Assembly: GCA_964652845.1 (NCBI GenBank)
Contig: CAZZDQ010000005.1
Location: forward strand, 22,959 to 86,958
Length of the DNA stretch: 64,000 bases
Reading direction: 5' to 3'
DNA from: an uncultured Chitinophaga sp.
Lineage (GTDB): Bacteria; Bacteroidota; Bacteroidia; Chitinophagales; Chitinophagaceae
Made by a program: the position numbers and the translations under genes. Positions 33,780-51,997 of the stretch are shown in pieces. Every line of letters starts with the position of its first letter. Position 1 is the first letter of the stretch. The notes beneath the pieces were generated by a model. It searched no databases and was not told where the DNA came from. It was given only the letters and a program-made list of their open reading frames with translations.

Positions 33780-34673
33780 TCAGGCGACTTCTTTCTCTTC
33801 TCCCTCGGGAAAATCATCCTGCTCCCGCTCTATCCTGCGGGTAATATCATTCAAGGAAGCCAGACGTTCCACGGTATAGGGAATGGTGTCCAGCCCCGTG
33901 ACGAAACGCTGAATATAACTGTAGATACCGATGATACTCCCCGCTTCCAGCATATTGCCCGCCGTGACCTTGTTGGTGACAAGCAGGGAGATCCCGATCA
34001 CTGCCATGACCATGATCTCCAGCACACCGAAATTCCATGCCTGCTGGTCGCTGATACGGATCTGCCATTTGCGAAGACTGCTGTAATGATTGTGGATCTT
34101 GTGGATATTGCCCCCGGCAATGACCTCCACCTGGTTTTCCAGCTCGTCATTCTTTTGTTTATTCAGGTGTTTCATCTGTTTGCCATAGAAATAACTGGCC
34201 GCGCCAACAGGGACAAGGATGGCCAGGCAGACGAGCACCACGGCGTTATCATAAAAGAATAACAATATCAGGGATCCAAGGATATTATAGGCTGCTTCGA
34301 TCACATAAATGACATCGTGTTCAAGGAAATCCACGAACTCACGGGCAAGGGTTGAATGGGCGCTGAGTTTTGAAACGTCCCGCTGACGCCGCCTGCGGCT
34401 GATGAATTGGGCAACAAGGGAAGTATAGATCGCAGTATAGGTACGGGTATCAAATCTTTGACGGATGATGCCCACCACGATATACCCGAAATGAACAGCG
34501 GTCAACAGGATCAGTCCGTCATAACTGCCCCTTATCAGGTCGTTTACCGCGATCCCGAAAAAGAAGGGCCTTAAAAGGTTGCCCAGCATTTCCAGTCCAA
34601 ACAAAATATAAGTGAATACCAGCTTCCACCGGTATTCCTTCATCAGTCTGCGTAATATTCCAAAGCGGGACAT
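33780..34673 (-). CDS. Stand-alone ABC-transporter six-TM domain protein (no ATPase)
   Basis: Hydrophobic helices with an ABC-exporter-like pattern (AREFVDFLE); no Walker motifs. Confidence 0.7.
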   Translation of the reverse strand: MSRFGILRRLMKEYRWKLVFTYILFGLEMLGNLLRPFFFGIAVNDLIRGSYDGLILLTAVHFGYIVVGIIRQRFDTRTYTAIYTSLVAQFISRRRRQRDVSKLSAHSTLAREFVDFLEHDVIYVIEAAYNILGSLILLFFYDNAVVLVCLAILVPVGAASYFYGKQMKHLNKQKNDELENQVEVIAGGNIHKIHNHYSSLRKWQIRISDQQAWNFGVLEIMVMAVIGISLLVTNKVTAGNMLEAGSIIGIYSYIQRFVTGLDTIPYTVERLASLNDITRRIEREQDDFPEGEEKEVA

Positions 34674-34838: not shown

Positions 34839-36266
34839 TTATTTCTTCAATGATAACTCAGTGTTTGTTAGACTATTGTGTTTAATCCCCTGAATATTAC
34901 CGCGGCAATTTTTACTACCGCAATTACATTGAAAAGCTTCCATATTTTCATCTAAAAACGAGGAATAATCAAGTGTTAATTCTTCTTCTTTTTTGATGTT
35001 CCTGGCTGCCATTGTGTTCAGTCCGTCAAAAACGGTATTGGGGTCGCAACTATGGTTTTGAGGCGCCCATTCCGAAGGGTCCTCATCCCATAAGGCGTAC
35101 ACTTCTTCGCTCAACGGATAAGCATAACGCCGGAAATGATTTTTCTCGTTCTCATCCCAATGTTTTTCAACAAAGCGCCTTGTAATGATCCGTTGGGCCT
35201 TGCCTTCCCCGGTGAATATGACCTCCCCCTTCCTGATCTCACGGGTGGCATAGATCCCAAAGCCTGCGATCGAATTGCCTTTCATCCGGAAAGGCCTGAA
35301 CTTCCGCTTGTGCCGGGCGATGCCTTCGGCAATAATATGTTTCAGGAAACCTGCCTGACCCGCACCGTCGAATTTCAATACATAATCTGCGGAGCCTTCA
35401 TAGCCGCCCGTATAAAAAACAGAACATGTGAAATTAACCTCCAGGAAATAGATCTCATTCCGCTCGTTTACCCTGAAATCCATGCGGGCATATCCCACCC
35501 CGCTGAAACCCTTGAAAATTTTTTCTGCGGCCGACCGCAGCGCTTTATCCAATACCGCATCCTCGCATGGGAAATTGCAATCGGGGTGCAGTTCCGAGGT
35601 TTTGAGTGAGTAGGTCTTGAAAGACTTGCCCGTGGGGAAACGGTATTCTACCGGCAAATAGACCGTGCACTCGTTTTCCATTTCGTTCGCAGCAACCAGC
35701 ACTGTGAACTCACGTCCTTCGATGAATTCTTCGATCAGGAGATTTTTGAATTCAGGAAGGATCGCACGGCATTTATCGGAAAGCTGTTGTTCATTATAAA
35801 CAAGGGAATGCTCATCAACGCCGAGGCTATCGCCGGCCTTGGCGGGTTTTACAAACAGGGGATATTGAAGATGCTTCACCGCTGAAGTAAGATCATGCAG
35901 ATCATGAATAAGCACATATCCCGGGGTTTTCACCCCTTCGCAAAACGCCATGTATTTCATCAGCTCTTTGGGAGGATCATATAGTTTGACTGTAGGCCCG
36001 GTGTGGGGCAGGTTGAGCAGGTCAAAACTATAGATCACATCAATGGAGGGGACCTCCCATTCGAGGTAACCCTCGCAAAGGTTTACGAAAATATCAAACC
36101 CCTGTCCGCCTAACTCTTTCAGTTGTTTATAGGTAGTGAGTTTGTTCAGGAAAACATGGTGTACTTCATCCTGCGGCAAAAGCGGTGACAGGTTACGGGG
36201 CGGATCATAATTCTTGTAATCGACACCGGTGGTGGAATAATCGGGTTGTAACACACACACTTTCAT
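34839..36266 (-). CDS. Ddl-like ATP-grasp ligase fused to a C-terminal SET/post-SET methyltransferase
   Basis: ATP-grasp: YPLFVKP, IEEFIEGREFTV, ARMDFR, FLEVN. SET: GFGIYA, NHSCDPN, ELTLDY. Post-SET: CNCGSKNC. Confidence 0.9.
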   Translation of the reverse strand: MKVCVLQPDYSTTGVDYKNYDPPRNLSPLLPQDEVHHVFLNKLTTYKQLKELGGQGFDIFVNLCEGYLEWEVPSIDVIYSFDLLNLPHTGPTVKLYDPPKELMKYMAFCEGVKTPGYVLIHDLHDLTSAVKHLQYPLFVKPAKAGDSLGVDEHSLVYNEQQLSDKCRAILPEFKNLLIEEFIEGREFTVLVAANEMENECTVYLPVEYRFPTGKSFKTYSLKTSELHPDCNFPCEDAVLDKALRSAAEKIFKGFSGVGYARMDFRVNERNEIYFLEVNFTCSVFYTGGYEGSADYVLKFDGAGQAGFLKHIIAEGIARHKRKFRPFRMKGNSIAGFGIYATREIRKGEVIFTGEGKAQRIITRRFVEKHWDENEKNHFRRYAYPLSEEVYALWDEDPSEWAPQNHSCDPNTVFDGLNTMAARNIKKEEELTLDYSSFLDENMEAFQCNCGSKNCRGNIQGIKHNSLTNTELSLKK

Positions 36267-36317: not shown

Positions 36318-37457
36318 TTACACGGCAATGGCGACAGCTTTTTTGCGATACATGCTGTTTGCCCCGACAGCATATCTTTTGATGGCATCCTTTAAAATAT
36401 CTTCCATTGCGGATATAAAGCTGATGTCCGAAAACTTAAGAATAGCTCCGATAGAAGTATAATCCGCGTCCTCACTCAGACCGCATTGCGCATTTACTTC
36501 CAGCACATACAGGGTGTCGGTTGCATCATCCTGCCGGATATCAATTCTTGTATAACCATACCCGCTGCAGGCCGCATAAGCTTCCAGGCTGATTTTTTTT
36601 AATTGGGCCGCCAGCTTTTTTTCTACCGGCTGATAGGAATAGAAATATTCATTGTCAGGCATGGCGCTTTCCTGGTCATAGAATTCCCATAACCTGCCAA
36701 AGGATAAAAATCTTTCTTCCTCGGGCAGGGATTTGTGAAATACCCTTTCGGCAGGTTCATACACGTAACAATTTTTCAGATCAGCGGTCCCCGTGATGAA
36801 CGTGGTGAACTCACGACCTTTAATGAATTGTTCCACGAATAAGCCGTCGCCCATCAGGTTCCAGCTGCGAAATCCTTTACAGATCTCCGTTATCCGTTCT
36901 TTTAATTCGGCGGAATTGTGGATCACATTATTGACCGCAATACCCATACTGCCGCCCGAAACAGCAGGTTTGATGATCAGCGGGGGTGGGATCTGGTTGC
37001 AAATATTGCGCAGCAGGATGGGGTTATTCTTGATGACTGCCCAGCGGGGTGTACTGATCCCATATTTATCAAATACCCTTTTCATCGGGATCTTGGAAGT
37101 GGTCAGTTCAAAGAAATGCGTGTTGGAGCCCGTATAAATGAGATCATATTTTTCCAGCTCCCGGATGACGGAAATGCCCGGAGCCCCATTGATCTCGTCG
37201 CCGTCGCACAAATTCAATACAAGCGGCCGGAGACCATTGGAAGAGGCAGCGATCTGTTTGATGACCATTTTATGATTGCCCATGTTTAGGGGTTGCCATT
37301 TCCATTGTACACCCAGTGCAGCGAACACGCGTGTATATTCTGCTATACTTTGTGTAAAGTCGTAATACTCCCGCAGTTTCGGGTCATCGGTTTCCAGCTC
37401 CGGGGCCAGCACCCAGATAAAATAGTTTTTCAACTGGTATGACAGTTTACCGGCCAT
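36318..37457 (-). CDS. Ddl-like ATP-grasp ligase
   Basis: PLIIKPAVSGGSMG, VEQFIKGREFT, TRIDIR and VLEVN motifs. Confidence 0.88.
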   Translation of the reverse strand: MAGKLSYQLKNYFIWVLAPELETDDPKLREYYDFTQSIAEYTRVFAALGVQWKWQPLNMGNHKMVIKQIAASSNGLRPLVLNLCDGDEINGAPGISVIRELEKYDLIYTGSNTHFFELTTSKIPMKRVFDKYGISTPRWAVIKNNPILLRNICNQIPPPLIIKPAVSGGSMGIAVNNVIHNSAELKERITEICKGFRSWNLMGDGLFVEQFIKGREFTTFITGTADLKNCYVYEPAERVFHKSLPEEERFLSFGRLWEFYDQESAMPDNEYFYSYQPVEKKLAAQLKKISLEAYAACSGYGYTRIDIRQDDATDTLYVLEVNAQCGLSEDADYTSIGAILKFSDISFISAMEDILKDAIKRYAVGANSMYRKKAVAIAV

Positions 37458-37462
37458 GGGGA

Positions 37463-37972
37463 TCAGGCAACTTTTCTTTTGGCTGCACGGCGGGCCAGCA
37501 TTCCGGCAATGAAATCAGTGAAACGGTATTTTTCCACTGCTTCACGGGACAGGTAAGCGGCTCCTCTTATTTCGCCCAGGCAACAAGGCTTGTCGCAAAA
37601 ACACCGGAAGGAGCGGTCCATTTTCCATTCGGAGGAAGGATAGAAGAAAGTGAATTCATCACCGGCCTGTACAGGTTTTAATGCGATCAGTTTCATGGTG
37701 GTCGTATCAAAAAACACATTGGGATCGCAGCTGTGATTGATGTATTGCAAAAACTCAGGGTCCAGCGTGATATGTTTTTTGGGGCCGACCTGGATCGTCA
37801 GGTAAGTGGGCTCCGCTGCAATGGAAGAAGCCGAAAAATCCGAAACGATATCCCCCGCATTCCATGAACGAAGGGCAAATAGGGCCTGCTGATTGTTGTT
37901 GAGATTTTTTCGTACTTCAGCGATAATATGGTGGCTGATCGTACGATAAGGAGGAAGGGTTCCTGTATCCAT
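37463..37972 (-). CDS. SET-domain protein
   Basis: INHSCDPN, DEFTFFYP and post-SET CFCDKPCC motifs. Confidence 0.88.
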   Translation of the reverse strand: MDTGTLPPYRTISHHIIAEVRKNLNNNQQALFALRSWNAGDIVSDFSASSIAAEPTYLTIQVGPKKHITLDPEFLQYINHSCDPNVFFDTTTMKLIALKPVQAGDEFTFFYPSSEWKMDRSFRCFCDKPCCLGEIRGAAYLSREAVEKYRFTDFIAGMLARRAAKRKVA

Positions 37973-38346
37973 AAATGGTGTAGTAAGTAATTAAATGTAA
38001 GATAGAGATAAACTTTAAATGAAACAAGTTTAATGAATTAAATATTATTATTTCTTAACGATCATCATACAGGATCGTTCTATTCAAGTGCTATGGACCA
38101 TTCGTATAATGATGATATCCTATGATCACTTCAATACAGCATAAATGATCAGCGCCATAAAGAATGATAAGATCATTTCAGCGGGAATGATCCGCCGGAA
38201 AAAAACAATTCTTCATCATGGGGCAGACCCTTGGTATACGCTTAGTCCTATTGGATTATACGGACAGGGGGTTGTACAATATTTTTCCTGTCATTTGTAT
38301 CCGTCATAATGGAGAAGTAACTAATTTTAATATCAGAAACAGTACA

Positions 38347-40239
38347 ATGTACAGGATATCCGTTTTAACCTCGTTCATGATCTCATGCCTTGCAATTACC
38401 GGGTGCCGGAAAGCATCTTCATCTGGTAGTTCCGGAGGGACAGTCAAGAAAGATGTGCCGGGAGGTATGCAGGACGGGGTCAATTTCCTCAACGGGGGAA
38501 GATCGGTACTTTTTGATTTCTATGCGCCGAAAAAAAATTCCGTTTCGGTCATTGGTGAATTCACCAACTGGCAACCTGTTATGATGACGAATTCAACTGA
38601 CGGGAACCGGTGGTGGGTGCAGGTGGACAGCCTTGACCCCACAAAGGAATATGCCTATCAATACCTCGTTGACGGTTCGCTGCGAATAGCCGATCCCTAT
38701 ACGGAAAAAATACTGGACCCCAACAATGATCAGTATATACCAGCGAGCACCTACCCCAACCTGAAAGCCTACCCCTCAGGCGGTTCAGGTATTGTCAGCA
38801 CATTTTATTACAGCCAGCCCTCTTATTCCTGGCAGAATAATAATTTTCAGCGGCCCGAAGCTAAAAACCTTATTATTTATGAATTGCTGGTACGAGATTT
38901 TGTAGCCACCCATGATTATAAGACAATAAAGGATACGCTCAATTATTTTACAAGACTGGGCGTTAATGCCATTGAGCTGATGCCTTTCAGTGAATTCGAA
39001 GGCAATGATTCATGGGGTTATAACCCCGATTTCTATTTTGCACCGGATAAATATTATGGTACCAAGAATGATCTGAAGGCCCTGATCGATGCCTGTCATG
39101 GCAAAGGCATCGCCGTGATACAGGATATCGTGCTCAACCATTCCTTTGGCTCTTCCCCCATGGTGCAGTTATACTGGAACGGTTCAGCTCCTTCGGGCGA
39201 TAATCCATGGTACAATACCGTTCCCACACATCCTTATAATGTGGGATACCAGTTCAATCATGAAAACGCAGCCACCAAATACTTTGTCAAGAATGTGCTG
39301 AAATGGTGGATGACTGAATATCATATTGACGGGTTCCGGTTCGACCTGGCCAAAGGCTTTACCCAATTCAATTCAGGCACGGATGTGAATCTTTGGAGCC
39401 AATACGACGCCAGCCGTGTGGCCATCTGGAAGGATTATTACAATTATATACGGTCCATTGATCCAAGCCTGTATGTTATTCTTGAGTTTTTCGGCAGCAA
39501 CCAGGAAGAAGGAGAACTGACCACCCTTGGCATGTTGACCTGGAAAAACCTCGCCACGCCCGGCGAGCAGGCAACGATGGGCTATAATGACGCCGGTGGC
39601 TCTTGGGATATTTCAGGCCTGTTTTATGACCGCTATGGCTTCACCAACCCTTACGCGGCCATTGCTTATTTTGAAAGCCATGATGAGGAAAGACTGCAGT
39701 TCAAGAACGAAATGTATGGTAACAGCAGCGGAGGTTATAATATTAAATTGCTGCCCACCGGTTTAAAACGCGATGAAATGGGTGCTGCCTTCATGTTCTC
39801 CTCCCCGGGACCTAAAATGATCTGGGAGTTCGGGGAAATGGGCTATGACATCAGCATCAATGGTTTTGGGGGTCGTCTGAATCCAAAACCACCCCATTGG
39901 GAATACCTCAATGATCCAAACAGGGCCAGCCTGTTCAATATCTATTCAAAAATGATCCGGATGAAAATAAAAAACAATGTTTTCACTACTACCGGATACA
40001 GTTATGACCTCGGCCAGGCGGTCAAGATCATCCATTTGAACGGAACGGGCGGTATCTATGTCATTATAGTGGGAAATTTCGATGTGGTGCAGAATAATGC
40101 CGTGGTAAATTTTCCGCTCACCGGCAACTGGACCGATAATATCAACGGGGCGATACTCAATGTAAACACACAGAATTTCCCGATGACACTCCAGCCGGGA
40201 GAATACCATGTGTTCAGCAATCAGCCCCTGCAACAATAG
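38347..40239 (+). CDS. GH13 alpha-amylase-family lipoprotein with N-terminal CBM48-like domain
   Basis: Lipobox ITGC, IYELLVRDF, WGYNP, DIVLNH, GFRFDLAKG, ILEF and SHDEER motifs. Confidence 0.9.
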   Translation: MYRISVLTSFMISCLAITGCRKASSSGSSGGTVKKDVPGGMQDGVNFLNGGRSVLFDFYAPKKNSVSVIGEFTNWQPVMMTNSTDGNRWWVQVDSLDPTKEYAYQYLVDGSLRIADPYTEKILDPNNDQYIPASTYPNLKAYPSGGSGIVSTFYYSQPSYSWQNNNFQRPEAKNLIIYELLVRDFVATHDYKTIKDTLNYFTRLGVNAIELMPFSEFEGNDSWGYNPDFYFAPDKYYGTKNDLKALIDACHGKGIAVIQDIVLNHSFGSSPMVQLYWNGSAPSGDNPWYNTVPTHPYNVGYQFNHENAATKYFVKNVLKWWMTEYHIDGFRFDLAKGFTQFNSGTDVNLWSQYDASRVAIWKDYYNYIRSIDPSLYVILEFFGSNQEEGELTTLGMLTWKNLATPGEQATMGYNDAGGSWDISGLFYDRYGFTNPYAAIAYFESHDEERLQFKNEMYGNSSGGYNIKLLPTGLKRDEMGAAFMFSSPGPKMIWEFGEMGYDISINGFGGRLNPKPPHWEYLNDPNRASLFNIYSKMIRMKIKNNVFTTTGYSYDLGQAVKIIHLNGTGGIYVIIVGNFDVVQNNAVVNFPLTGNWTDNINGAILNVNTQNFPMTLQPGEYHVFSNQPLQQ

Positions 40240-40419
40240 CCACACTCATTCAATTTGTTGCACATTGCACAATTTCACGCCCGGTTTTATGTTTCAAAAA
40301 CAGCTGTTAACCGGCGTTAAGAATTTTTTTTTACAAAGATAAAATTGCGGTAACTTTCAAAATCTTACAGTAACATTGTACGTTTAAACATTGATTCCTT
40401 CACTCTTTAAAGACTGCTT

Positions 40420-43374
40420 ATGTTTTTCAAAAGAATAATCAGGGCCGCGGGTATGGCGGCCATGCTGCTGGCAGCTCAAGTTTCATTTGCACAGAACCGT
40501 GTTATTACCGGTAAAGTGAGCGACTCAAAGGATGGTTCACCTGTTGCAGGGGCTACTGTTTCCGGGAAAGGAACCAGGATCGCCGCGCAGACCATTTCAG
40601 ACGGAACATTTCGAATATCCATTCCTTCTACGGTTGTTACGCTGACCATTTCATCTGTCGGCTATGCCCCACAGGATGTGTCCGTTACAGGTATAACTTC
40701 TCTCGAAGTTTCACTTGTTCTGACCAATACAATACTGGGTGAAGTGGTGGTAACGGGCTATGGTACCGTGAAAAGAAAAGATCTTACGGGATCCATTGCG
40801 ACTGTGAGCTCCAAGGATTTTGTAAAAGGACCGCTCACTTCTCCCGAACAATTGATTAATGGAAAAGTTGCCGGCGTACAAATTACAACGGGTGGCGGCG
40901 CCCCGGGCAGCGGTAGCAGGATCCGTGTAAGGGGGACCTCTTCTTTATCAGCAAGCAATAATCCGCTCATCATCATCGATGGTGTACCGGTGGATCAGGA
41001 AAGCGGCATTTCAGGAGCTGCCAATCCGCTGGCGCTCATCAATCCGAATGATATCGAATCCATCAATATTCTAAAAGATGCATCTGCAACGGCCATTTAC
41101 GGGAACAGGGCCACGAACGGTGTCATCATTATCACAACAAAAAAGGGGAAATCCGGCAAATTGAAAATAAATTTCAATACACAGAACTCCATAGCCACAG
41201 TTGGGAAAAAAGTGGATATGATGAACGCAAGTGAATTCACTTCACTGATCAAGGCCAAAGGGACGAATGCCCAGATTGCCCTGCTGGGTACCTCGAATAC
41301 CAACTGGCAGGATCTCATTTATCATAGTGCTTTTACAACAGATAATAATATTGGTGTAACCGGAGGCCTGGGTAATTTCCCCTACCGGGCTTCTGTGGGT
41401 TATCATAACGAGGACGGGACGCTGAAGACCGGGAACCTGCAGCGGATCAGCACAGCAGTAAACATTAACCCAAGGCTGTTAAAGAATATGCTGAAGATCG
41501 ATTTCAATTTTAAAGGCTCTTTTACAAACACCCGTTTCGCGAACGAGGGCGCAATCGGAAGCGCTGCGTTTTTCGATCCTACCCAACCGGTTTACCGGTC
41601 CGATAACCGATTTGGCGGTTACTGGGAATGGCTGGATAATAATCAGCCCAATGGACTGGCACCCAAGAACCCTCTTGGCATGCTCAACCTGAGACAAGAT
41701 AAGAGCAATGTGCACCGTTATGTTTCTAACCTGCAGGTTGATTATACCCTTCCCTTCTTTAAGGATATGCATATTAATATAAATGTGGGTGGAGATTATT
41801 CCTCAAGTACGGGGACAGTTTATATCCCCGACTCTGCAGCCATGACTTATATAAGGGGCGGGGTGAACAACCAGTATGACCAGAAAAAAAAGAACAAACT
41901 GTTTGAGGCCCTGGTGAATTACGGCAAGGATATCAAGAAAATAAAAAGCAGGCTCGATCTTTTTGCCGGATACGGATACCAGGATTTCATCAGGCAAAGC
42001 ACGAATTTCCCGGATAACAGGGCCAACGGAACGCAATTCGCTCCTCCAGCGCCCAATCCATTCTATACGCAAAATACACTGGTATCGTTCTTTGGAAGGC
42101 TGGATTATAATTATATGGGACGTTATATCCTCCGGGCGAATATTCGCTACGACGGTTCTTCCCGTTTCAGCAAAGAAAACCGTTGGGGAACCTTCCCTTC
42201 AGTTGCTTTTGCGTGGAGAATCACCGATGAACCCTTTTACAAACGCCGGCCCAGTAAAATTCTCTCAGATCTGAAATTCAGGATCGGGTACGGAGAAACC
42301 GGTCAACAGGAGATCGGCAGCGACTATGCCTACCTGCCCATCTATACGTTGGGTACACCAACGGCGCAATACCAGTTTGGAAGCCAGTTTTATCCCGTTT
42401 ACCGGCCCAATGGCTATGACGCCAATATCAAATGGGAAACAACCAATACTTTCAATATCGGGTTTGATTACGGATTCTGGGGGAACAGGATAACGGGTAA
42501 CATAGATTACTACAAGAAAAACACGAAAGATCTTTTGAACAGAATTCCTGCTCCGGCAGGCACCAACTTCACCAATATCATTCTGACCAATGTGGGGAAT
42601 ATGGAAAACCAGGGCGTTGAAATAGCAATGAACGCAAACCTGGTCAAGAAGAAGAACGTTACCTGGGATCTGGGCGCCAACTTTACCTATAATACGAATA
42701 AGATCACCAAACTCACCAAGGTCAACGATCCCACTTACCAGGGCGTGCTGGTGGGCGGTATCTCAGGCGGAGTAGGCAATACCATCCAGATCAATTCTGT
42801 GGGCTACCGGCCCAACTCATTTTATGTACTGCAGCAGGTATATACTGCACAAAATAAACCTATTGAAGGATTATATGTTGACAGGAACGGAGACGGGATC
42901 ATCAATAACAATGATTATTACCGTTACAAATCCCCTGAGCCAGATTATATGATCGGGGGAACGACTTCTGTTGGTTATAAGAACTGGACCTTCTCAACTG
43001 TTGTGCGGGTACTGACCGGTAATTATATGTATAATAATGTGTTTGCAAGCAATGGTGTCTTCAGTACGAGTTCAGTGAAATACCTGGGCAATGTGCACCG
43101 GAATTACCTGCAAACAGGTTTCTCCACTTACCAGTATTTCTCAGATTATTACATAGAGAATGCGACATTCCTGAGAATGGATAACCTCACGCTTTCCTAT
43201 GATTTCGGAAAGATTATGAGCGGGAAAGCCAACCTCAGAGGCACCCTAAACGTTCAGAATGTATTCGTGCTGACCAAATACAGGGGGTTGGATCCCGAAA
43301 TTGCCGGGGGGATAGATAATAATTTCTATCCTCGTCCCCGGATCTATTCACTCGGGCTCAATCTTGATCTGTAA
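40420..43374 (+). CDS. susC: SusC-family TonB-dependent transporter
   Basis: VVVTGYG, DLTGSI, ILKDASATAIYGNRATNGVIIITTK; C-terminal barrel end. Confidence 0.96.
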   Translation: MFFKRIIRAAGMAAMLLAAQVSFAQNRVITGKVSDSKDGSPVAGATVSGKGTRIAAQTISDGTFRISIPSTVVTLTISSVGYAPQDVSVTGITSLEVSLVLTNTILGEVVVTGYGTVKRKDLTGSIATVSSKDFVKGPLTSPEQLINGKVAGVQITTGGGAPGSGSRIRVRGTSSLSASNNPLIIIDGVPVDQESGISGAANPLALINPNDIESINILKDASATAIYGNRATNGVIIITTKKGKSGKLKINFNTQNSIATVGKKVDMMNASEFTSLIKAKGTNAQIALLGTSNTNWQDLIYHSAFTTDNNIGVTGGLGNFPYRASVGYHNEDGTLKTGNLQRISTAVNINPRLLKNMLKIDFNFKGSFTNTRFANEGAIGSAAFFDPTQPVYRSDNRFGGYWEWLDNNQPNGLAPKNPLGMLNLRQDKSNVHRYVSNLQVDYTLPFFKDMHININVGGDYSSSTGTVYIPDSAAMTYIRGGVNNQYDQKKKNKLFEALVNYGKDIKKIKSRLDLFAGYGYQDFIRQSTNFPDNRANGTQFAPPAPNPFYTQNTLVSFFGRLDYNYMGRYILRANIRYDGSSRFSKENRWGTFPSVAFAWRITDEPFYKRRPSKILSDLKFRIGYGETGQQEIGSDYAYLPIYTLGTPTAQYQFGSQFYPVYRPNGYDANIKWETTNTFNIGFDYGFWGNRITGNIDYYKKNTKDLLNRIPAPAGTNFTNIILTNVGNMENQGVEIAMNANLVKKKNVTWDLGANFTYNTNKITKLTKVNDPTYQGVLVGGISGGVGNTIQINSVGYRPNSFYVLQQVYTAQNKPIEGLYVDRNGDGIINNNDYYRYKSPEPDYMIGGTTSVGYKNWTFSTVVRVLTGNYMYNNVFASNGVFSTSSVKYLGNVHRNYLQTGFSTYQYFSDYYIENATFLRMDNLTLSYDFGKIMSGKANLRGTLNVQNVFVLTKYRGLDPEIAGGIDNNFYPRPRIYSLGLNLDL

Positions 43375-43411
43375 AAAAACCGTATTTAAAGTATTGATAA
43401 AATAAATCATC

Positions 43412-44998
43412 ATGAAAAAACATTTTTTAAAAGCGTTCTTGTTCGGGGCAGTCATCACCTTACTGGCATCCTGTACCAAGGACCTGAACAGATCGCCGAA
43501 ATATGATGTTACATCCGTAAATGTCTATAAGGATATAACAGGCTATAAGGAAGTGCTGGCAAAGATCTATGCGGGATTGTCCACTACCGGGAATTCGGGT
43601 CCTGATGGGAACGGCGATATCCAGGGTATCGATGAGGGTTTTTCCAGTTACCTGCGCCAGTACTGGCAGACCCAGGAATTACCCACAGACGAAGCCGTGA
43701 TCGGCTGGAATGATGCCACGATCAAGGATTTTCATAATATGGTGTGGAGCTCCAGTGATGTATTTATCAGGGCGATTTACTATCGCATTTATTTTCAGAT
43801 CACCCTCTGCAATGAGTTCATCCGGGAAAGCACACCTTCCAAGCTAAGTTCAAGAAATATAACCGGCGCTGATGCAACAGAGATCGGCTATTTCAGGGCA
43901 GAAGCCCGGTATCTGCGTGCTTTGAGTTATTACCATGCGCTCGACCTGTTCGGCAATGTGCCCTTTGTCACTGAAAACGATCCCATCGGTTCATTTTTGC
44001 CCAGCCAGATCACAAGACCTAACCTGTTCAATTATATCGAATCCGAACTGAAAGCCATTGAAACCCTGTTAAAACCGGCCAAGAGCAATGAATACGGAAG
44101 GGTGGATGCTTCTTCCGACTGGGCCTTGCTTGCAAAACTTTACCTGAATGCTGAAGTGTACACCGGAACAGCCCGTTATTCAGATGCCGTCAGTTATTGC
44201 AATAAAGTCATCGCTGTAGCCGGCTATTCACTTGTCAATCCCTATCGTTATTTATTCCTGGCTGATAATAATGCCACTTCCACCAGCGAGATCATTTTCC
44301 CGGTAACATTTGACGGAAACAAAACAAGGACCTGGGGCGGGACTACCTACCTTGTACACGCCCCGGTTGGCGGTTCCATGAGCCCTTCCGCACAGGGTGT
44401 CGATTTCGGCTGGGGAGGACTTCGCTGCACTAAACAATTTGTACAGAAATTCCCCGATCCGAGCGGCGCTACTGACACAAGGGCAAATTTCTATACCAGC
44501 GGGCAAAACCTTGATATCAACGATGTATCCTCATTTACGGATGGCTGGGCGATCATCAAATTCAGGAATGTCACTTCCACCGGGGCACCGGGTTCCAACC
44601 CTACCTGGGTGGATACCGATTACCCTATGTTCCGTTTGGCAGAAATATACCTGACCTATGCTGAATGTGCCACCCGGGGTGCAGGAGATGTGAACACGGC
44701 TGTTACGTATATCAACCTGCTTCGTCAAAGAGCTTACGGGAATGCATCCGGCAATATCACACTCGCTCAACTCACGCCCCAGTTTGTACTGGATGAAAGG
44801 GCAAGGGAACTGTATTGGGAAGCTACAAGGCGTACAGACCTGATCCGCTACGGGCAGTTCACTACCAGTTCATATTTATGGGCATGGAAGGGTGGTGTTT
44901 CGGGCGGGCAGGCAGTAGGAAGTTACCGGAATTTATACCCGATCCCATCTTCGGATGTTACGGCTAATCCAAACCTTCAACAAAATCCCGGATATTAA
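43412..44998 (+). CDS. susD: SusD/RagB-family lipoprotein
   Basis: Lipobox LASC, AEARYLRA, FRLAEIYL, ERARELYWE and QNPGY motifs. Confidence 0.96.
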   Translation: MKKHFLKAFLFGAVITLLASCTKDLNRSPKYDVTSVNVYKDITGYKEVLAKIYAGLSTTGNSGPDGNGDIQGIDEGFSSYLRQYWQTQELPTDEAVIGWNDATIKDFHNMVWSSSDVFIRAIYYRIYFQITLCNEFIRESTPSKLSSRNITGADATEIGYFRAEARYLRALSYYHALDLFGNVPFVTENDPIGSFLPSQITRPNLFNYIESELKAIETLLKPAKSNEYGRVDASSDWALLAKLYLNAEVYTGTARYSDAVSYCNKVIAVAGYSLVNPYRYLFLADNNATSTSEIIFPVTFDGNKTRTWGGTTYLVHAPVGGSMSPSAQGVDFGWGGLRCTKQFVQKFPDPSGATDTRANFYTSGQNLDINDVSSFTDGWAIIKFRNVTSTGAPGSNPTWVDTDYPMFRLAEIYLTYAECATRGAGDVNTAVTYINLLRQRAYGNASGNITLAQLTPQFVLDERARELYWEATRRTDLIRYGQFTTSSYLWAWKGGVSGGQAVGSYRNLYPIPSSDVTANPNLQQNPGY

Positions 44999-45042
44999 CC
45001 CTCCAAAAAATTATTCATAAACAAGAAATAAAACTTATCAAA

Positions 45043-46128
45043 ATGAAAGCAATAGTAAAAAGTTCCCTGATGCTATTGATTGCTTCGGCTACCCTGTTAT
45101 CTTCCTGTACAAAGAATGATAACAAGGCATACCTGAATCCCGGAGCGGCACCCATGCTGAATACGACCATGACCACGCTTGTATTGGTACAAGCCAATGC
45201 AGCCAATACAGCCGGTTCATTTACATGGACCGCAGCGGATTTTGGTTACAAAGCTGCTGTAACATACAGTTTACAGTTCTGTAAGGCAGGCACCAACTTC
45301 GCCACTTCCTCCACTACCGAATTGAATGTGGGAAGTGTCCTTTCAAAAACCTTCACGGTCAGTGAATTCAATGCAAAGATGCTGGATATCATGCCTTATG
45401 GTGTGGCCACGCAGATCAATGCAAGATTAAAAGCCGATGTGGGATCAGGCGTAACGCCTATTTATTCAAATGTTATCACAAATATTACGGTGACCGCTTA
45501 CCGGGATATCATCAATTACAGCTTCCCGAATGCTTTGTGGATCGCCGGCAATTACCAGGGATGGGATCCGGGATCTGCTCCCAAGATCGTGGATAAATTT
45601 GCCAGCGGCACAACCGGCTCAAATTATGAAGGGTATATTAATATCTCTGACGGTTCCCCGCATCCATTCAAAATGGTAAAAGGAAATAACTGGGGTGCCG
45701 GTGACTTTGGCGCTGGTCTTGCTGTGTGGACATTACAAAGCCCAAGCGGCACGAACCTTACCATATCCGGTACGCCGGCAGGCGTTTACCTGGTCAAGGC
45801 AAATACCGCCAACCTTACATGGTCTGCCACCCTGATCACTACCTGGGGCATTATCGGCAGCGCAACCGCCAATGGTTGGGGTTCCAGCACACCCATGACA
45901 TTCGTTCCCGCTTCGGGTACCTGGACCATTACCGTGAACCTGACTGCAGGGGAAATGAAATTCAGGGCCAACGATGACTGGGGAATAAATTTTGGAGATA
46001 ATGCACCAGCAGACAATAAGCCTGATTACAATGGATCAAATATTGTTATCGCTGCGGATGGAAATTATACCATTACCCTGGATATCGGTACAGCAGGGAA
46101 TTACGCGTATACTATCCGGAAAAATTGA
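45043..46128 (+). CDS. SusE/SusF-like surface glycan-binding lipoprotein
   Basis: Lipobox LSSC, W-T-A-A-D-F-G, GWDP, and KFRANDDW...G repeats. Confidence 0.85.
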   Translation: MKAIVKSSLMLLIASATLLSSCTKNDNKAYLNPGAAPMLNTTMTTLVLVQANAANTAGSFTWTAADFGYKAAVTYSLQFCKAGTNFATSSTTELNVGSVLSKTFTVSEFNAKMLDIMPYGVATQINARLKADVGSGVTPIYSNVITNITVTAYRDIINYSFPNALWIAGNYQGWDPGSAPKIVDKFASGTTGSNYEGYINISDGSPHPFKMVKGNNWGAGDFGAGLAVWTLQSPSGTNLTISGTPAGVYLVKANTANLTWSATLITTWGIIGSATANGWGSSTPMTFVPASGTWTITVNLTAGEMKFRANDDWGINFGDNAPADNKPDYNGSNIVIAADGNYTITLDIGTAGNYAYTIRKN

Positions 46129-46147
46129 TTCCCGTGTAATATTTTAC

Positions 46148-46180
46148 AGCGGCTGTTCTGAAAAGAAAGCCGCTTTTTTT
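46148..46180 (+). terminator. Intrinsic terminator after susE
   Basis: Stem agcggct/agccgct (plus inner ttct/agaa) followed by a T run. Confidence 0.7.
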
Positions 46181-46199
46181 GTAATATTATTCCTTAGCG

Positions 46200-47237
46200 A
46201 TGTTCGGGCAACTTAAAAAAATCATTCCCTGTTTATTCATGGCTGTCATCGGCTGCAGCAAGTCCGGCTCTTATAATAATTCGGGCGGTGGTGGCGGAAA
46301 CCCGCTGAGCCCATCATTTGTAAAGGGCGCCGATGTAAGCTGGTTGACTGAAATGGAAAGTGCCGGGATAAAATTTTACAATAGTGCAGGTACGGAAACC
46401 GAATGCATGACCCTGATGAAATCCCTCGGGATGAACACGGTTCGTTTCCGGGTATGGGTGAATCCCACGCCCTCCTGGAATAATGCCGCAGATGTGGTGG
46501 TCAAAGCTGTGAGGGCAAAGAACCTGGGGCTGCGTGTGATGATCGATTTCCATTACAGCGATACCTGGGCTGATCCTGGACACCAGACAAAGCCGGCTGC
46601 ATGGACCACACAGGATTTTGCAACTTTAAAAACTTCCTTGGCTACACATACCTCCGATATGTTGAACCAGCTTAAAACGGCCGGCGTGACACCTGAATGG
46701 GTACAGGTCGGCAATGAAACCAATGACGGTATGTTATGGCCTGACGGGAAAGCTTCGGTCAATATGGCCAATTTTGCCCAATTGGTTAATGCTGGTTATG
46801 ATGCAGTGAAAAATGTTTTTCCGGCAACGAAGGTGATCGTGCATATTTCAAATGGGTTTGATAATAATTTGTTCAGATGGGTATTTGACGGCCTTACGGC
46901 AAATGCTGCCAAATTTGATGTGATCGGGATGTCATTGTATCCGCCCGTGGCCAGCTGGTCTTCCTATAACACACAATGCCTGGCCAATATGAATGATATG
47001 GTGAGTCGTTATAATAAAGAGGTGATGATGGTGGAAGTGGGTATGCCCTGGACCAATGCAGCGGAATGCAAGGCATTCTTAAGTGACCTGATCACGAAAA
47101 CAAATTCGGTGGCAAATAGCAAGGGGCTGGGGGTGATATACTGGGAGCCGGAAGCTTATAATAACTGGAAAGGATATTCCCTGGGTACCTTTGATAATAG
47201 CGGGAAACCTACCATTGCCCTGGATGCTTTTCAATAA
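46200..47237 (+). CDS. GH53 endo-1,4-beta-galactanase (lipoprotein)
   Basis: GADVSW, RFRVWVNP, DFHYSDTWADPG, QVGNE, MVEVG and YWEP motifs. Confidence 0.93.
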   Translation: MFGQLKKIIPCLFMAVIGCSKSGSYNNSGGGGGNPLSPSFVKGADVSWLTEMESAGIKFYNSAGTETECMTLMKSLGMNTVRFRVWVNPTPSWNNAADVVVKAVRAKNLGLRVMIDFHYSDTWADPGHQTKPAAWTTQDFATLKTSLATHTSDMLNQLKTAGVTPEWVQVGNETNDGMLWPDGKASVNMANFAQLVNAGYDAVKNVFPATKVIVHISNGFDNNLFRWVFDGLTANAAKFDVIGMSLYPPVASWSSYNTQCLANMNDMVSRYNKEVMMVEVGMPWTNAAECKAFLSDLITKTNSVANSKGLGVIYWEPEAYNNWKGYSLGTFDNSGKPTIALDAFQ

Positions 47238-47297
47238 ATGGCCTTGTACAACTCCTTATTTGCCCCGGTTGGGAGAATTAAACCAGCCCCGAAAATT

Positions 47298-47305
47298 TAT
47301 ATTTG
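47298..47305 (+). promoter_or_regulatory. -7 promoter box TATATTTG
   Basis: TAnnTTTG 20 nt upstream of the ATG at 47326. Confidence 0.5.
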
Positions 47306-47325
47306 TCCTAATCAATCATTGCGGT

Positions 47326-50300
47326 ATGCGAACATATTCCCTCCTTTATATAATACTGTGTTTATTCCTGTTCTGCAATTTATCCCTCTGCGCACAAAAA
47401 AGAACAAACCTTGATGAGAACTGGAAATTTCATTTTGGCCATGCTGCCAACCCTGATAAGGATTTTAATTACAGCCTGGCAACCATTTTCGCGAAAAGCG
47501 GTGGAGCTGCCCGGACGGCTATCGACCCGCGTTTCAATGACAGTACCTGGAGAACGGTGAGCCTGCCGCACGACTGGGCTGTCGAATTACCCTTCGTTGA
47601 ACATCCCGGCTTTGAAGTTGAATCGCATGGATACAAACCGGTGGGCGGATATTTTCCGGAAACAAGCATTGGATGGTACCGGAAAAAATTCAGGGTGGAT
47701 CCCGCCGACAGCGGTCAGCGTTTTCAGTTGCAGTTTGACGGGATCTTCCGCAATGCGATGATATGGGTGAATGGTTTTTTTGCCGGCAATAATATGAGTG
47801 GATATATCGGAGCTTCCTATGATGTTACCGATTTTATCAGCTTCAGCAGGGATAATGTGATCGTGGTAAGGGTGGATGCCACGCAGTATGAAGGCTGGTT
47901 CTATGAAGGGGCGGGCATCTACAGGCATGTGTGGTTAAATCAATACAATAATATACATATTCCTGACGGAGGTTTGTTTGTATACGCAGAGGTTTCAGGG
48001 AATGCCGCTACGCTCAATATTGAAACGACCGTTGAGAATCAAAACAACGATATTGTCAACACTTCGGTCTATTCATACATCACTGCAAGGAACGGGCAAA
48101 TCATTGCACAATCAAAAGAACAACCACTTACACTGGCACCGGATGGCAGGCTATCGGTCAACCAGAAATTGCAGGTTCTCAGCCCGCATTTCTGGAACCT
48201 GGATGATCCTTATTTATACAGGGTTGTTTCGGTTGTAAAAACAGGCAACAAGGTTGTATTTACAAAAAAGGAAAGATTCGGTATCCGAAGTTTTCGCTTT
48301 GATGCCAACGATGGTTTTTTTCTCAATGGGAAATACATGAAGATACAGGGCACCTGCAATCACCAGGACCATGCAGGCCTGGGAAGCGCCTTGCCCGATT
48401 ATATTCAATACTACCGGGTCCGCCTGCTGAAGAATATGGGTGTGAACGCCTGTCGTACCAGTCACAATCCACCTGCACCGGAATTCCTCGAAGCCTGTGA
48501 CAGCCTCGGGATGTTGGTATTAGACGAACAACGGCTGCTCAACAGCAGTCCGGAATACATGAATCAATTTGAAAGGATGATCCTGCGTGACAGGAACCAT
48601 CCTTCCATATTTATGTGGAGTATCGGTAATGAAGAAGGCTGGATACATACAAATTCCTTCGGCAAGCGCATAGCACAGACATTTATTGCAAAACAAAAAG
48701 AACTGGACCCTTCCCGGACCTGCACCTATGCCGCTGATGTGGCCAATGTCTTTAACGGGGTGAATGAAGTGATCCCCGTGCGCAGTTTCAATTATCGCCA
48801 GTTCGGTGTGGCAGATTACCACCGGGACCATCCTGCACAACCGCTGATGGGCACAGAAATGGGCAGCACGGTAACGACCCGCGGGCAATATGCAAAGGAT
48901 TCCGTTCGCGGTTACCTGCCCGATCATGATATCACCGCACCCTGGTGGGCCAGTACGGCGGAGACCTGGTGGAAACTGGCTGCAGAAAATAAATACTGGA
49001 TGGGTGGATTTGTATGGACAGGCTTTGACTATCGCGGGGAGCCTACTCCCTTTCACTGGCCCAATATCAATTCTCATTTCGGGATCATGGATATGTGCGG
49101 GTTCCCCAAGAACAATTATTACTATTATCAAAGTTGGTGGACGAATGAGGATGTGCTGAATATCTCTCCGCACTGGAATTGGCCTGTCAATTGGGGAGAA
49201 GCCCCACCCATTATTGATGTTTGGGTGAACAGTAATGCAGACAGTGTTCAGTTATTATTGAACAATAAAAGTTTGGGCACGAAAATAATGCCAGGGAACG
49301 GGCATTTGCAATGGGATGTAAAATATGCACCCGGTAAATTAGAAGCAATTGGGTATAAAAGCAGGAAATCACTTCATGCACAGGTTGAGACCACCGGTGC
49401 TCCCGCTGAAATTGTTTTAACGCCCTATAAAACTACCATGCTTGCCGACGGAAAGGATGTAACGGTGATGAATATGAGCATCATTGACCGCGAAGGGAGG
49501 GAAGTGCCTGATGCAAATAATATGATCCGCTTCACCATTAGCGGGCCGGGAAGGATCATCGGGGTGGGTAATGGTGATCCGAGCAGTCATGAGCCGGATA
49601 AATGTATGGACGGCGCCTGGCAGCGCAGTGCTTTCAACGGGAAATGCCAGGTGATCGTACAGTCAGAAAATAAGCCGGGCATCATTAAATTCCAGGCTAC
49701 CTCACCCGGGCTATGGAGCGGGGGCACAGATATTATCACTGTTTCACCGGGCAGCGCAGCAAGCGTGACCATAGATAAAAAATACCAGTTATCGGGCGAA
49801 GCGGCCAAACCGCATGAGGCAACAAAGATGATCGGGGCCGATATCTCATTCCTACCTCAGCTTGAGGACCGTGGTATGAAATTCAGCGATACCGGAACGG
49901 AAACGGATGCGATCAGGATCATGAAGGCACATGGTTTTAATTATGTCCGTTTGCGCATCTTTAATGATCCGGCCCGTGATAGCGGCTATGCACCGGGCAA
50001 AGGATTCTGCGACCTGGCGCATACAAAGCAAATGGCAAAACGGGTAAAGGATGCGGGGATGAAACTCCTGCTGGATTTCCATTACAGCGATTACTGGGCT
50101 GACCCGGGAAAACAATTCAAGCCTGCCGCCTGGCGCAACCTGGATTTTGAACAACTCAAACAGGCGCTCTATGATTATACAAAGAATGTCATCTCAGCAC
50201 TAAAACAACAAGGTACGGCGCCGGACATGGTGCAGATCGGGAATGAGATCAATCACGGAATGGTATGGCCGGAGGGCAGCATCGCTCATATTGATAGTCT

Positions 50301-50736
50301 TGCACAATTGGTGAACGCGGGCATTGCCGCCGTAAAATCAGTAGAACCTTCCACCGTCATAATGCTGCATATTGCCCTGGGCGGACAAAACGATGAATCC
50401 GTTTTCTTTATTGACAATATGCTGGCCCGGAGTGTACCTTTTGATGTAATCGGCCTTTCTTACTATCCCAAATGGCACGGCACGCTGGATGACCTGCGGA
50501 ATAATATGCGTGATCTGGTAAGACGTTATGACAAGGACATCATCGTGGTGGAATATTCGGCGAAGAAAGAAGAAGTGAACAAGCTGAATTTTGAATTGCC
50601 CGATGGGAAAGGAAAGGGCACCTGTATCTGGGAGCCATTAAGCACATGGGAAAAATTCTTTGATAATGACGGGAAGAGCAACCAGTACCTGAAAATGTAT
50701 GACGGGATCAGCAAACAATATTTGGATAACCGGTAA
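47326..50736 (+). CDS. GH2 beta-galactosidase fused to a C-terminal GH53 galactanase domain
   Basis: GH2: GAGIYRHV, NHQDH, RTSHNP, WSIGNEE, GTEMGS, GFDYRGEP. GH53: GADIS, DFHYSDYWADPG, QIGNE, VVEYS. Confidence 0.92.
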   Translation: MRTYSLLYIILCLFLFCNLSLCAQKRTNLDENWKFHFGHAANPDKDFNYSLATIFAKSGGAARTAIDPRFNDSTWRTVSLPHDWAVELPFVEHPGFEVESHGYKPVGGYFPETSIGWYRKKFRVDPADSGQRFQLQFDGIFRNAMIWVNGFFAGNNMSGYIGASYDVTDFISFSRDNVIVVRVDATQYEGWFYEGAGIYRHVWLNQYNNIHIPDGGLFVYAEVSGNAATLNIETTVENQNNDIVNTSVYSYITARNGQIIAQSKEQPLTLAPDGRLSVNQKLQVLSPHFWNLDDPYLYRVVSVVKTGNKVVFTKKERFGIRSFRFDANDGFFLNGKYMKIQGTCNHQDHAGLGSALPDYIQYYRVRLLKNMGVNACRTSHNPPAPEFLEACDSLGMLVLDEQRLLNSSPEYMNQFERMILRDRNHPSIFMWSIGNEEGWIHTNSFGKRIAQTFIAKQKELDPSRTCTYAADVANVFNGVNEVIPVRSFNYRQFGVADYHRDHPAQPLMGTEMGSTVTTRGQYAKDSVRGYLPDHDITAPWWASTAETWWKLAAENKYWMGGFVWTGFDYRGEPTPFHWPNINSHFGIMDMCGFPKNNYYYYQSWWTNEDVLNISPHWNWPVNWGEAPPIIDVWVNSNADSVQLLLNNKSLGTKIMPGNGHLQWDVKYAPGKLEAIGYKSRKSLHAQVETTGAPAEIVLTPYKTTMLADGKDVTVMNMSIIDREGREVPDANNMIRFTISGPGRIIGVGNGDPSSHEPDKCMDGAWQRSAFNGKCQVIVQSENKPGIIKFQATSPGLWSGGTDIITVSPGSAASVTIDKKYQLSGEAAKPHEATKMIGADISFLPQLEDRGMKFSDTGTETDAIRIMKAHGFNYVRLRIFNDPARDSGYAPGKGFCDLAHTKQMAKRVKDAGMKLLLDFHYSDYWADPGKQFKPAAWRNLDFEQLKQALYDYTKNVISALKQQGTAPDMVQIGNEINHGMVWPEGSIAHIDSLAQLVNAGIAAVKSVEPSTVIMLHIALGGQNDESVFFIDNMLARSVPFDVIGLSYYPKWHGTLDDLRNNMRDLVRRYDKDIIVVEYSAKKEEVNKLNFELPDGKGKGTCIWEPLSTWEKFFDNDGKSNQYLKMYDGISKQYLDNR

Positions 50737-50785
50737 AGCATACCAGTTTTTCTGCAGCGAGTAAATCCTTATCCGGGAATAAGTC

Positions 50786-51937: not shown

Positions 51938-51997
51938 TGTCCGATTACTGTTCTTTTGGTAATATTGTCCTGCGAAGGATACCCTAAATCAGAAATT

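Follow-up and report, generated by a model that had tools for sequence, protein, structure and literature searches.

Does a bacterial protein that joins an ATP-grasp ligase and a SET methyltransferase in one chain keep both activities, and what might such an enzyme make? The question is raised by a fusion gene in a 64,000-nucleotide stretch of DNA (hereafter the window) from an uncultured Chitinophaga sp. (GenBank assembly GCA_964652845.1, contig CAZZDQ010000005.1, positions 22,959 to 86,958 of the forward strand). SET domains are the textbook protein-lysine methyltransferases, and the ATP-grasp half of the fusion is of the D-alanine-D-alanine ligase (Ddl) type. The gene belongs to a four-gene cassette, together with a second ligase gene (ATPgrasp1), a stand-alone SET gene, and a gene for an ATP-binding cassette (ABC) exporter-type membrane domain (PF13748). 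An earlier reading of the sequence alone (the sequence-only reading) claimed that both halves of the fusion keep their catalytic signatures, that the two SET domains are of different subtypes with different substrates or roles, and that the fusion channels an intermediate between ligation and methylation. Below, we describe evidence that both halves are probably active enzymes and that the fusion is widespread, and we weigh what the cassette may produce.

Domain integrity and conservation of the fusion

In Pfam comparisons, the fusion protein matches Dala_Dala_lig_C at residues 128–278 (E 1.1e-21; 77.7 bits, cut-off 24) and SET at residues 335–434 (E 9.1e-12; 45.8 bits, cut-off 22.4), matches that are much too strong to be due to chance. 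All of the motifs listed in the sequence-only reading could be located by script at exact positions. The ligase half has FVKP (138–141), EEFIEGRE (179–186), RMDFR (261–265, containing R-x-D), and LEVN (275–278, E-x-N). The SET half has GFGIYA (335–340, GxG), NHSCDPN (404–410), ELTLDY (429–434), and CNCGSKNC (447–454, the post-SET CxCx4C). The second half thus has the attributes of a SET methyltransferase (class V), as judged by Pfam score, GxG, NHSC, the Tyr of ELxxDY, and the post-SET Cys residues. The AlphaFold2 (AF2) model of the fusion is confident, with a predicted local distance difference test score (pLDDT) of 89.3 and a predicted template modeling score (pTM) of 0.77. In it, the last ligase helix (303–322) leads into the first SET strand (326–331) through a linker of ~3 residues. 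Judged by these signatures, both halves look catalytically competent. The channeling of an intermediate between them is suggested by the fusion alone.

The best 120 database relatives are, without exception, full length with both Pfam domains present. Conservation of individual residues was evaluated in two sets: 41 homologues from named phyla (at least eight), and 62 divergent representatives that cover both halves and have mutual identity of at most 50%. Among the 62, the ligase positions are kept as K140 (60/62), E179 (62/62), D263 (60/62), E/D276 (62/62), and N278 (59/62), and the SET positions as H405 (59/62), C407 (55/62), Y434 (52/62, plus four with Phe), and the three post-SET Cys (56–58/62). 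The catalytic positions of both halves are therefore retained in about 84–100% of these sequences. In the 41 homologues, the ATP/Mg residues (K140, E179/E180, R261, D263, E276, and N278) are conserved; N404, H405, C407, C447, C449, and C454 of the fused SET are invariant; and Y434 occurs in ≥90%. The claim that both halves keep their catalytic signatures therefore extends to relatives, in which the two sets of residues are conserved together. Because the catalytic positions are kept in the 62 representatives, both halves are apparently under selection as enzymes.

Distribution and origin

Of 301 genomes sampled evenly across the phylum (Bacteroidota), 14 have the intact, full-length fusion; for the window's own family the figure is 49 of 151 sampled genomes, or 48 of 150 genera. 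Three of the family copies deviate: one is interrupted by a stop codon, another is broken into two parts, and a third matches residues 131–460 only. A scan of species-representative genomes recovered full-length copies in Chitinophagaceae and Saprospiraceae, and also in Gemmatimonadota (54–57% identity), Acidobacteriota (53–59%), and the Cyanobacteria Brasilonema and Coleofasciculus (48–53%). A clade at 35–38% identity comprises sequences from Chlorobium ferrooxidans, Caldilineales/Chloroflexota, Rhodothermales, Nannocystis, further Gemmatimonadota, and Actinomycetota. Myxococcota are among the phyla that carry the fusion. An exhaustive HMMER search of 1.84 billion cluster representatives returned 249 clusters at E ≤ 1e-30, including Mesostigma viride and Closterium sp. 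NIES-68, both of them streptophyte algae and the sole eukaryotes identified by name.

The possibility that the fusion is a sporadic artefact, absent in relatives, had been raised with the sequence-only reading and does not survive these counts. A phylogeny of SET domains was also run (maximum likelihood, 86 SET sequences, 41 of them fused SETs, with Shimodaira-Hasegawa-like approximate likelihood ratio test [SH-aLRT] supports). All 41 fused SETs form one clade (SH-aLRT 99), which indicates that the fusion arose once. Taken together, the fusion is ancient, of single origin, and widespread, and it is no artefact. Its patchy occurrence within the phylum and the family, with 53–59% identity to copies in Gemmatimonadota and Acidobacteriota, suggests horizontal transfer, which would be typical of accessory metabolism.

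Some features set groups of relatives apart. After the post-SET region (beyond about residue 460 of the window's protein), most members of the 35–38% clade have a conserved C-terminal extension, PW....Y-G-HVS-Y[VI], that is missing from the window's clade, and this clade is usually without the second ligase gene. One family genome has two fusion copies with identical scores on different contigs (G354:C2:1971827-1973254 and G354:C5:43115-44542), which may reflect recent duplication or assembly redundancy.

The two SET domains

The genome (2.88 Mb) holds only two SET domains, the fused one and the stand-alone one. For the fused SET, the best sequence matches in the PDB are the SET domains of KMT2D and KMT2A (residues 331–464, E 5.6e-9 to 1e-8), and its alignment to BurB covers residues 403–463 only. 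BurB, from Burkholderia thailandensis, is a SET enzyme of 172 aa whose substrate is free L-methionine, which it methylates on sulfur (PMC12542666). The stand-alone SET has BurB as its best PDB sequence match (9l4t, E 9.6e-12), with histone methyltransferases next (E 5e-6 or worse). Its AF2 model (pLDDT 93.8) also has BurB structures as the top Foldseek matches (9l4v and 9l4t, TM 0.67–0.72 over 152–155 columns). By compact size, closest relatives in sequence and fold, and the tyrosine described next, the stand-alone SET is of a BurB-like type. In the SET tree, the stand-alone SETs of the cassette form a separate clade (SH-aLRT 95–98), and unrelated stand-alone bacterial and archaeal SETs sit closer to the fused clade than they do.

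The motifs of the stand-alone SET are NNNQQALF (25–32), NHSCDPN (79–85), FTFFY (107–111), PSSEW (112–116), and CFCDKPCC (124–131). The sequence-only reading noted that GxG is missing, which is correct, as NNNQQALF occupies its place. It also considered ELxxDY to be absent, which is not the case: FTFFY aligns with ELTLDY, as a variant that keeps the tyrosine as Y111, which in the HMMER alignment is equivalent to Tyr124 of BurB. The post-SET Cys cluster is present as well. In 22 homologues H67, N79, H80, C82, Y111, E115, C124, C126, and C131 are invariant. This includes the NH that binds S-adenosylmethionine (SAM), the active-site Tyr, and the Zn-binding Cys residues, and contradicts the hint of a degenerate domain. 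The stand-alone SET is thus, as far as these residues indicate, a different subtype rather than a degenerate one. The division into two subtypes holds, with separate, supported clades and KMT2-type enzymes versus BurB as closest solved relatives, and it is therefore plausible that the two SET domains have different substrates or roles. Because methionine in BurB is bound mainly via main-chain atoms (PMC12542666), sequence cannot decide whether methionine is the substrate of the stand-alone SET.

In Chlorobium there is a third SET, of a minimal 120 aa, encoded after the full-length ABC exporter described below (L024 5812–6174, minus strand; L066 11704–12066, plus strand). Its motifs are GKGFLGVYA, NHHCDPS/N, EITFDY, and CSCGAxxC. 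In the SET tree it is a long branch near the stand-alone clade, a placement that is unreliable.

The two ligases

The fold of the ligase half is that of a Ddl. When the AF2 model of the fusion was searched with Foldseek, the best 50 PDB matches were all D-Ala-D-Ala, D-Ala-D-Lac, or D-Ala-D-Ser ligases (TM normalized to target 0.66–0.80 over 325–379 alignment columns, E 5e-20). Active sites were compared in an alignment of the genome's own Ddl, both operon ligases, and their relatives. The ATP/Mg2+ residues of Ddl (Lys144, Glu180, Lys215, Arg255, Asp257, Glu270, and Asn272 in Escherichia coli DdlB numbering) all have equivalents in the fusion (K140, E179/E180, K222, R261, D263, E276, and N278). 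The Lys215 equivalent, K222, is retained with its loop and is found in 56 of the 62 representatives. In both operon ligases the ATP/Mg2+ framework is kept as the VKP lysine, EEF..GRE, R-x-D-x-R, and LE-x-N. The corresponding motifs of ATPgrasp1 are IIKP, VEQFIKGRE, RIDIR, and LEVN, along with NLCDG.

The two D-alanines of a Ddl are bound by GGxSxExxVS, HGxxGEDG, Tyr216, and a Ser/Leu region. All of these (GGxSxExxVS with Glu15, HGxxGEDG, Tyr216, and Ser281/Leu282) are replaced in both operon ligases. The replacements are family specific: VLQPDYS..., NLC[ED]G, K-T/W (R-x-W in ATPgrasp1), and FTCSVF/GSAD. Scores against NCBIfam Ddl models are correspondingly far below the cut-offs, at 80.5 bits for the fusion (best model TIGR01205, cut-off 245.65) and 90.5 bits for ATPgrasp1 (cut-off 243). 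We also considered whether the fusion could be the housekeeping Ddl. This was rejected, as the D-Ala-binding residues are replaced and the genuine Ddl (PF07478, 167.7 bits) sits on another contig (C43). Because the D-Ala-binding residues are replaced, both operon ligases are predicted to be ATP-grasp amide ligases of the Ddl lineage that act on a substrate pair other than D-Ala/D-Ala.

Other fusions of the same domains

The domains of the cassette are also joined in other ways. A 647-aa protein from a marine metagenome scaffold (P0131; TARA, L116 8001–9944) has the order ATP-grasp, SET, BurB-like SET, and its C-terminal SET shares 43% identity with the window's stand-alone SET (E 3e-36). In P0138, from Mesostigma viride, a fusion-type unit is preceded by four SET domains of the stand-alone type. 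In P0183, an ATPgrasp1-type ligase (36% identity, E 1e-50) is joined to a fusion-type ligase, and P0151 is an ATP-grasp–SET–ATP-grasp protein. Because the domain types are fused in these further combinations in other organisms, there is strong comparative evidence that all four act in one process.

No other cassette gene lies near P0131 on its scaffold. The P0131 gene is downstream from, and on the same strand as, a gene for a cyclic nucleotide monophosphate-binding HEAT-repeat protein. Further upstream, the opposite strand carries a gene that weakly resembles guanylate cyclases, and one for a phosphodiesterase. A fusion-type ATP-grasp–SET unit also occurs at the C-terminal residues 5641–6109 (E 3e-49) of a 6220-aa eukaryotic protein model (P0258, eukprot), which may be chimeric.

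The cassette and its gene neighborhoods

The four cassette genes have the same orientation (Table 1). The spacing is 5 bp from the SET gene to ATPgrasp1, which is a paralogue of the fusion's ligase half, and 51 bp from ATPgrasp1 to the fusion gene. The PF13748 gene follows downstream on the same strand after a gap of 165 bp.

Table 1. Genes of the cassette and halves of the fusion, in order of transcription (window coordinates)
Feature	Position	Strand	Remarks
Stand-alone compact SET methyltransferase, BurB-like subtype	37463–37972	minus	169 aa; first gene of the cassette; Pfam SET E 8.5e-9
ATPgrasp1, stand-alone Ddl-like ATP-grasp ligase	36318–37457	minus	379 aa; Pfam Dala_Dala_lig_C E 7.3e-16
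Fusion gene (ATP-grasp + SET)	34839–36266	minus	475 aa; one open reading frame
Ligase half of fusion (ATP-grasp, Ddl-type)	35301–36266	minus	Residues 1–322; Pfam
SET + post-SET half of fusion	34839–35300	minus	Residues 323–475 and stop codon; Pfam SET 335–434
ABC-exporter-type membrane domain, PF13748 (ABC_membrane_3)	33780–34673	minus	297 aa; Pfam E 1.5e-44

Gene order varies among lineages. In Chitinophagaceae and Saprospiraceae it is SET, ATPgrasp1, fusion, followed in about half of the loci by the PF13748 gene. Gemmatimonadota have ATPgrasp1, fusion, and PF13748; Acidobacteriota have ATPgrasp1 and fusion; and Brasilonema has fusion and SET, with ATPgrasp1 nearby. In Chlorobium the order is SET, fusion, a full-length ABC exporter of 586 aa, and the mini-SET. 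In many members of the 35–38% clade the fusion is alone or with one SET. When open reading frames (ORFs) of ≥90 aa were clustered from 24 neighborhoods (21 from outside Chitinophagaceae, plus three comparison loci), no recurrent partner beyond the four cassette genes was found. The fusion is the invariant core of the cassette, to which a second ligase, a BurB-like SET, and a membrane protein may be added. Neither these neighborhoods nor the window's intergenic regions contain a conserved gene for a precursor peptide or carrier protein, and there is no conserved small ORF within the latter. A system for ribosomally synthesized peptides that undergo post-translational modification (a graspetide) was considered and rejected for lack of a precursor-peptide gene in the same regions (ORFs of ≥90 aa in the case of the neighborhoods).

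In three lineages the fusion has an ABC-type membrane protein as a neighbor, and these proteins are not of one kind. The PF13748 protein lacks an ATPase domain, no ATPase gene adjoins its own, and a PDB sequence search with it gave no match. We take it that it may be a secondary transporter lacking a nucleotide-binding domain (NBD), in the manner of SbmA/BacA. Many Bacteroidota have proteins of this family, about 290–300 aa in length, whether or not they carry the fusion. The Chlorobium exporter has both a transmembrane domain and an NBD and is MsbA/HlyB-like by NCBIfam (below cut-offs; TIGR02204 E 3e-108). It has no significant pairwise similarity to the PF13748 protein of the window, so any link to export would represent two independent recruitments.

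The neighbors of the cassette in the window are mnmG and a GH13 gene. A position next to mnmG/ybeY/nadD is seen in several loci, among them the window and its closest relatives. The region at 38218–53668 (plus strand, divergent from the cassette) holds a GH13 lipoprotein-like gene, followed by one for a SusC-type TonB-dependent receptor (40420–43374). It is a polysaccharide utilization locus unrelated to the cassette, and the adjacency is not kept in relatives.

A proposed function

We propose that the cassette makes, independently of the ribosome, a small amide compound that is methylated and probably carries a permanent charge, and that in some lineages is handed to an ABC-type membrane protein. 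We consider the chances of this proposal being right or wrong to be about equal. The Ddl-type ligase half would activate a carboxylate as its acyl phosphate, and coupling to an amine would give an amide (a dipeptide or pseudopeptide); this is suggested because the ATP/Mg2+ site is intact and the three-domain Ddl fold is retained. The SET half would methylate an amine of the substrate or product, using SAM and possibly repeatedly, to yield a quaternary ammonium. In the window, ATPgrasp1 might add a second amide bond, the BurB-like compact SET might methylate a free amino acid or another site (on N or S), and the downstream NBD-less membrane protein might export or translocate the product. We infer a small-molecule rather than a protein substrate from the Ddl type of the ligases, the relation of one SET to BurB, the repeated recruitment of ABC-type proteins, the lack of an apparent target or precursor gene in the neighborhoods analyzed, and a distribution like that of an accessory trait. 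Characterized Ddl and Van ligases act on small molecules.

Several points weigh against this proposal. Nothing in the analysis points to a particular substrate or product. The fused SET, with its classical post-SET, is most similar to KMT2-type protein-lysine methyltransferases, and the PGAP family name is “SET domain-containing protein-lysine N-methyltransferase.” In many lineages the fusion is found alone, without a transporter. The link to PF13748 is loose, given that the gene is 165 bp away and occurs also in Bacteroidota that lack the fusion. The stand-alone SET is only 25–33% identical to BurB, which does not fix its substrate.

It is possible, and we suggest this more tentatively, that the product belongs to a class of permanently charged (poly-N- or S-methylated) pseudopeptide metabolites, acting as osmolyte, signal, or antimicrobial and common to at least eight bacterial phyla and streptophyte algae, with SET enzymes serving as small-molecule tailoring enzymes coupled to Ddl-type ligases. 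If the proposal is true, SET chemistry extends into small-molecule metabolism, and there would be a methylated metabolite, maybe common in soil and freshwater bacteria, to look for. Besides many other phyla and green algae, a third of the sampled genera of the family have a conserved SET domain welded to a Ddl-type ligase, and many database entries for this family have names (“protein-lysine N-methyltransferase” or “D-alanine-D-alanine ligase”) that would be misleading and in need of correction. One to four genes suffice for the system, which makes it amenable to heterologous expression.

Alternative explanations

An alternative that we consider unlikely is modification of a protein or peptide. 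In the manner of RimK and tubulin-tyrosine-ligase (TTL) enzymes, the ligase half would add an amino acid to a Glu or Asp side chain or to the C terminus of a cellular protein, in which a nearby lysine would be methylated by the SET half. Such a fusion would be a bacterial counterpart of the TTLL12 layout. The KMT2-like nature of the fused SET, with its post-SET, is what would be expected in this case. Strong conservation of the SET-I insert (W370, F378, Y381, A382, P384, and W400) fits one fixed substrate, and the ability of the fusion to occur alone in a genome would suit a housekeeping protein as target. TTLL12 is itself a case of a SET-like and an ATP-grasp domain coexisting in one protein (PMC3520985). 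However, the ligase is Ddl-type, with fold matches that are all Ddl, no Pfam hit to TTL, and only a weak one to RimK, for ATPgrasp1 alone. The partner SET is BurB-like and thus akin to an enzyme of free amino acids, ABC exporters occur within the cassette, and no conserved target gene is nearby in the 24 neighborhoods (ORFs ≥90 aa). The patchy distribution also speaks against a role on a universal protein.

Tailoring of the cell envelope seems to us quite improbable. The ligases and SETs would modify an amino-acid-containing precursor (e.g., the stem peptide of peptidoglycan or the head group of an aminolipid) that the ABC-type protein flips or exports. Membership of the ligases in the Ddl family, the membrane nature of PF13748, and the MsbA-like exporter of Chlorobium can all be accommodated in this way. 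It is harder to reconcile with the replaced D-Ala-binding residues and the presence of a genuine Ddl elsewhere in the genome; no mur, acyltransferase, or lipid genes are conserved beside the cassette, and the fusion often occurs without a membrane partner. That one half, either the ligase or the SET, is a pseudo-enzyme with a role in binding or regulation, an idea put forward for TTLL12, is very hard to credit: single catalytic substitutions do occur in a few representatives (e.g., Y434 to F, H, or L in 7 of 62), but the ATP/Mg and SAM/Tyr/Zn residues are otherwise kept at the levels given above for the 62 representatives and in ≥90% of the 41 homologues, the pattern of retention that purifying selection on two active sites would produce.

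The match to BurB brought to mind one specific small-molecule pathway, the synthesis of dimethylsulfoniopropionate (DMSP). The BurB-associated route includes genes for S-methylmethionine (SMM) decarboxylase, an aminotransferase, and an aldehyde dehydrogenase (PMC12542666). We consider this route unlikely, as none of these genes lies by the cassette or recurs in the 24 neighborhoods, a comparison that covers adjacency only and in which bur-cluster genes were not used as queries. It should be noted that many source records of fusion relatives are soil or freshwater metagenome-assembled genomes, which also weighs against the DMSP route.

Comparison with known systems

The fusion shares with the Ddl family (DdlA/DdlB, VanA/VanG; PF07478) the three-domain ATP-grasp fold, the ATP/Mg2+ residues, the Lys215 equivalent, and R-x-D/E-x-N. 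It differs in that it lacks the D-Ala-binding motifs, scores below the NCBIfam cut-offs, is not the sole Ddl-type protein of its genome, and has a SET domain attached. The fused SET shares GxG, NHSCxPN, ELxxDY, and the post-SET CxCx4C with KMT2/MLL-type SETs, which are its best match over the whole length. Unlike these, it has no chromatin-reader or WRAD-binding regions, is attached to a ligase, and is bacterial and patchily distributed.

We found no paper on an ATP-grasp–SET fusion in the literature, although an amidoligase paper (Iyer et al. 2009) may mention the architecture. Among described proteins, the one case we found in which a single chain has both a SET-type and an ATP-grasp-type domain is eukaryotic TTLL12 (PMC3520985). 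There the order is reversed, with the SET-like domain N-terminal, and the ATP-grasp domain is TTL-type rather than Ddl-type; nothing points to common descent. The fusion has the ATP-grasp domain first and SET second, and in Pfam it is Ddl-type with no TTL hit.

The combination of peptide ligation and methylation has parallels among other enzymes. In the anserine pathway (carnosine synthase and carnosine N-methyltransferase), and with BacD/YwfE, TabS, and RizA, ATP-grasp ligases make dipeptides from free amino acids, and N-methylation or export can follow. The methyltransferase of the anserine pathway is neither a SET enzyme nor fused, and its ligase, as well as BacD/YwfE, TabS, and RizA, are of other ATP-grasp subfamilies.

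To our knowledge, BurB and MSMT are the only characterized SET enzymes that are exceptions in acting on a free amino acid, and BurB is the only one with a solved structure. MSMT (Streptomyces mobaraensis) is a BurB homologue and, like it, a SET-domain L-methionine S-methyltransferase (PMC12542666). These two enzymes show that SET domains can act on free amino acids. The stand-alone SET shares with them the compact size of ~170 aa, T-[LIV]-Q, H-S-C, the Tyr124 equivalent, and Y-x-S-[ST]-E. It differs in the low identity given above and in its neighbors, which are ATP-grasp ligases rather than genes of the DMSP route. Set beside these systems, the fusion cassette is an uncharacterized, widespread enzyme system composed of known catalytic domains.

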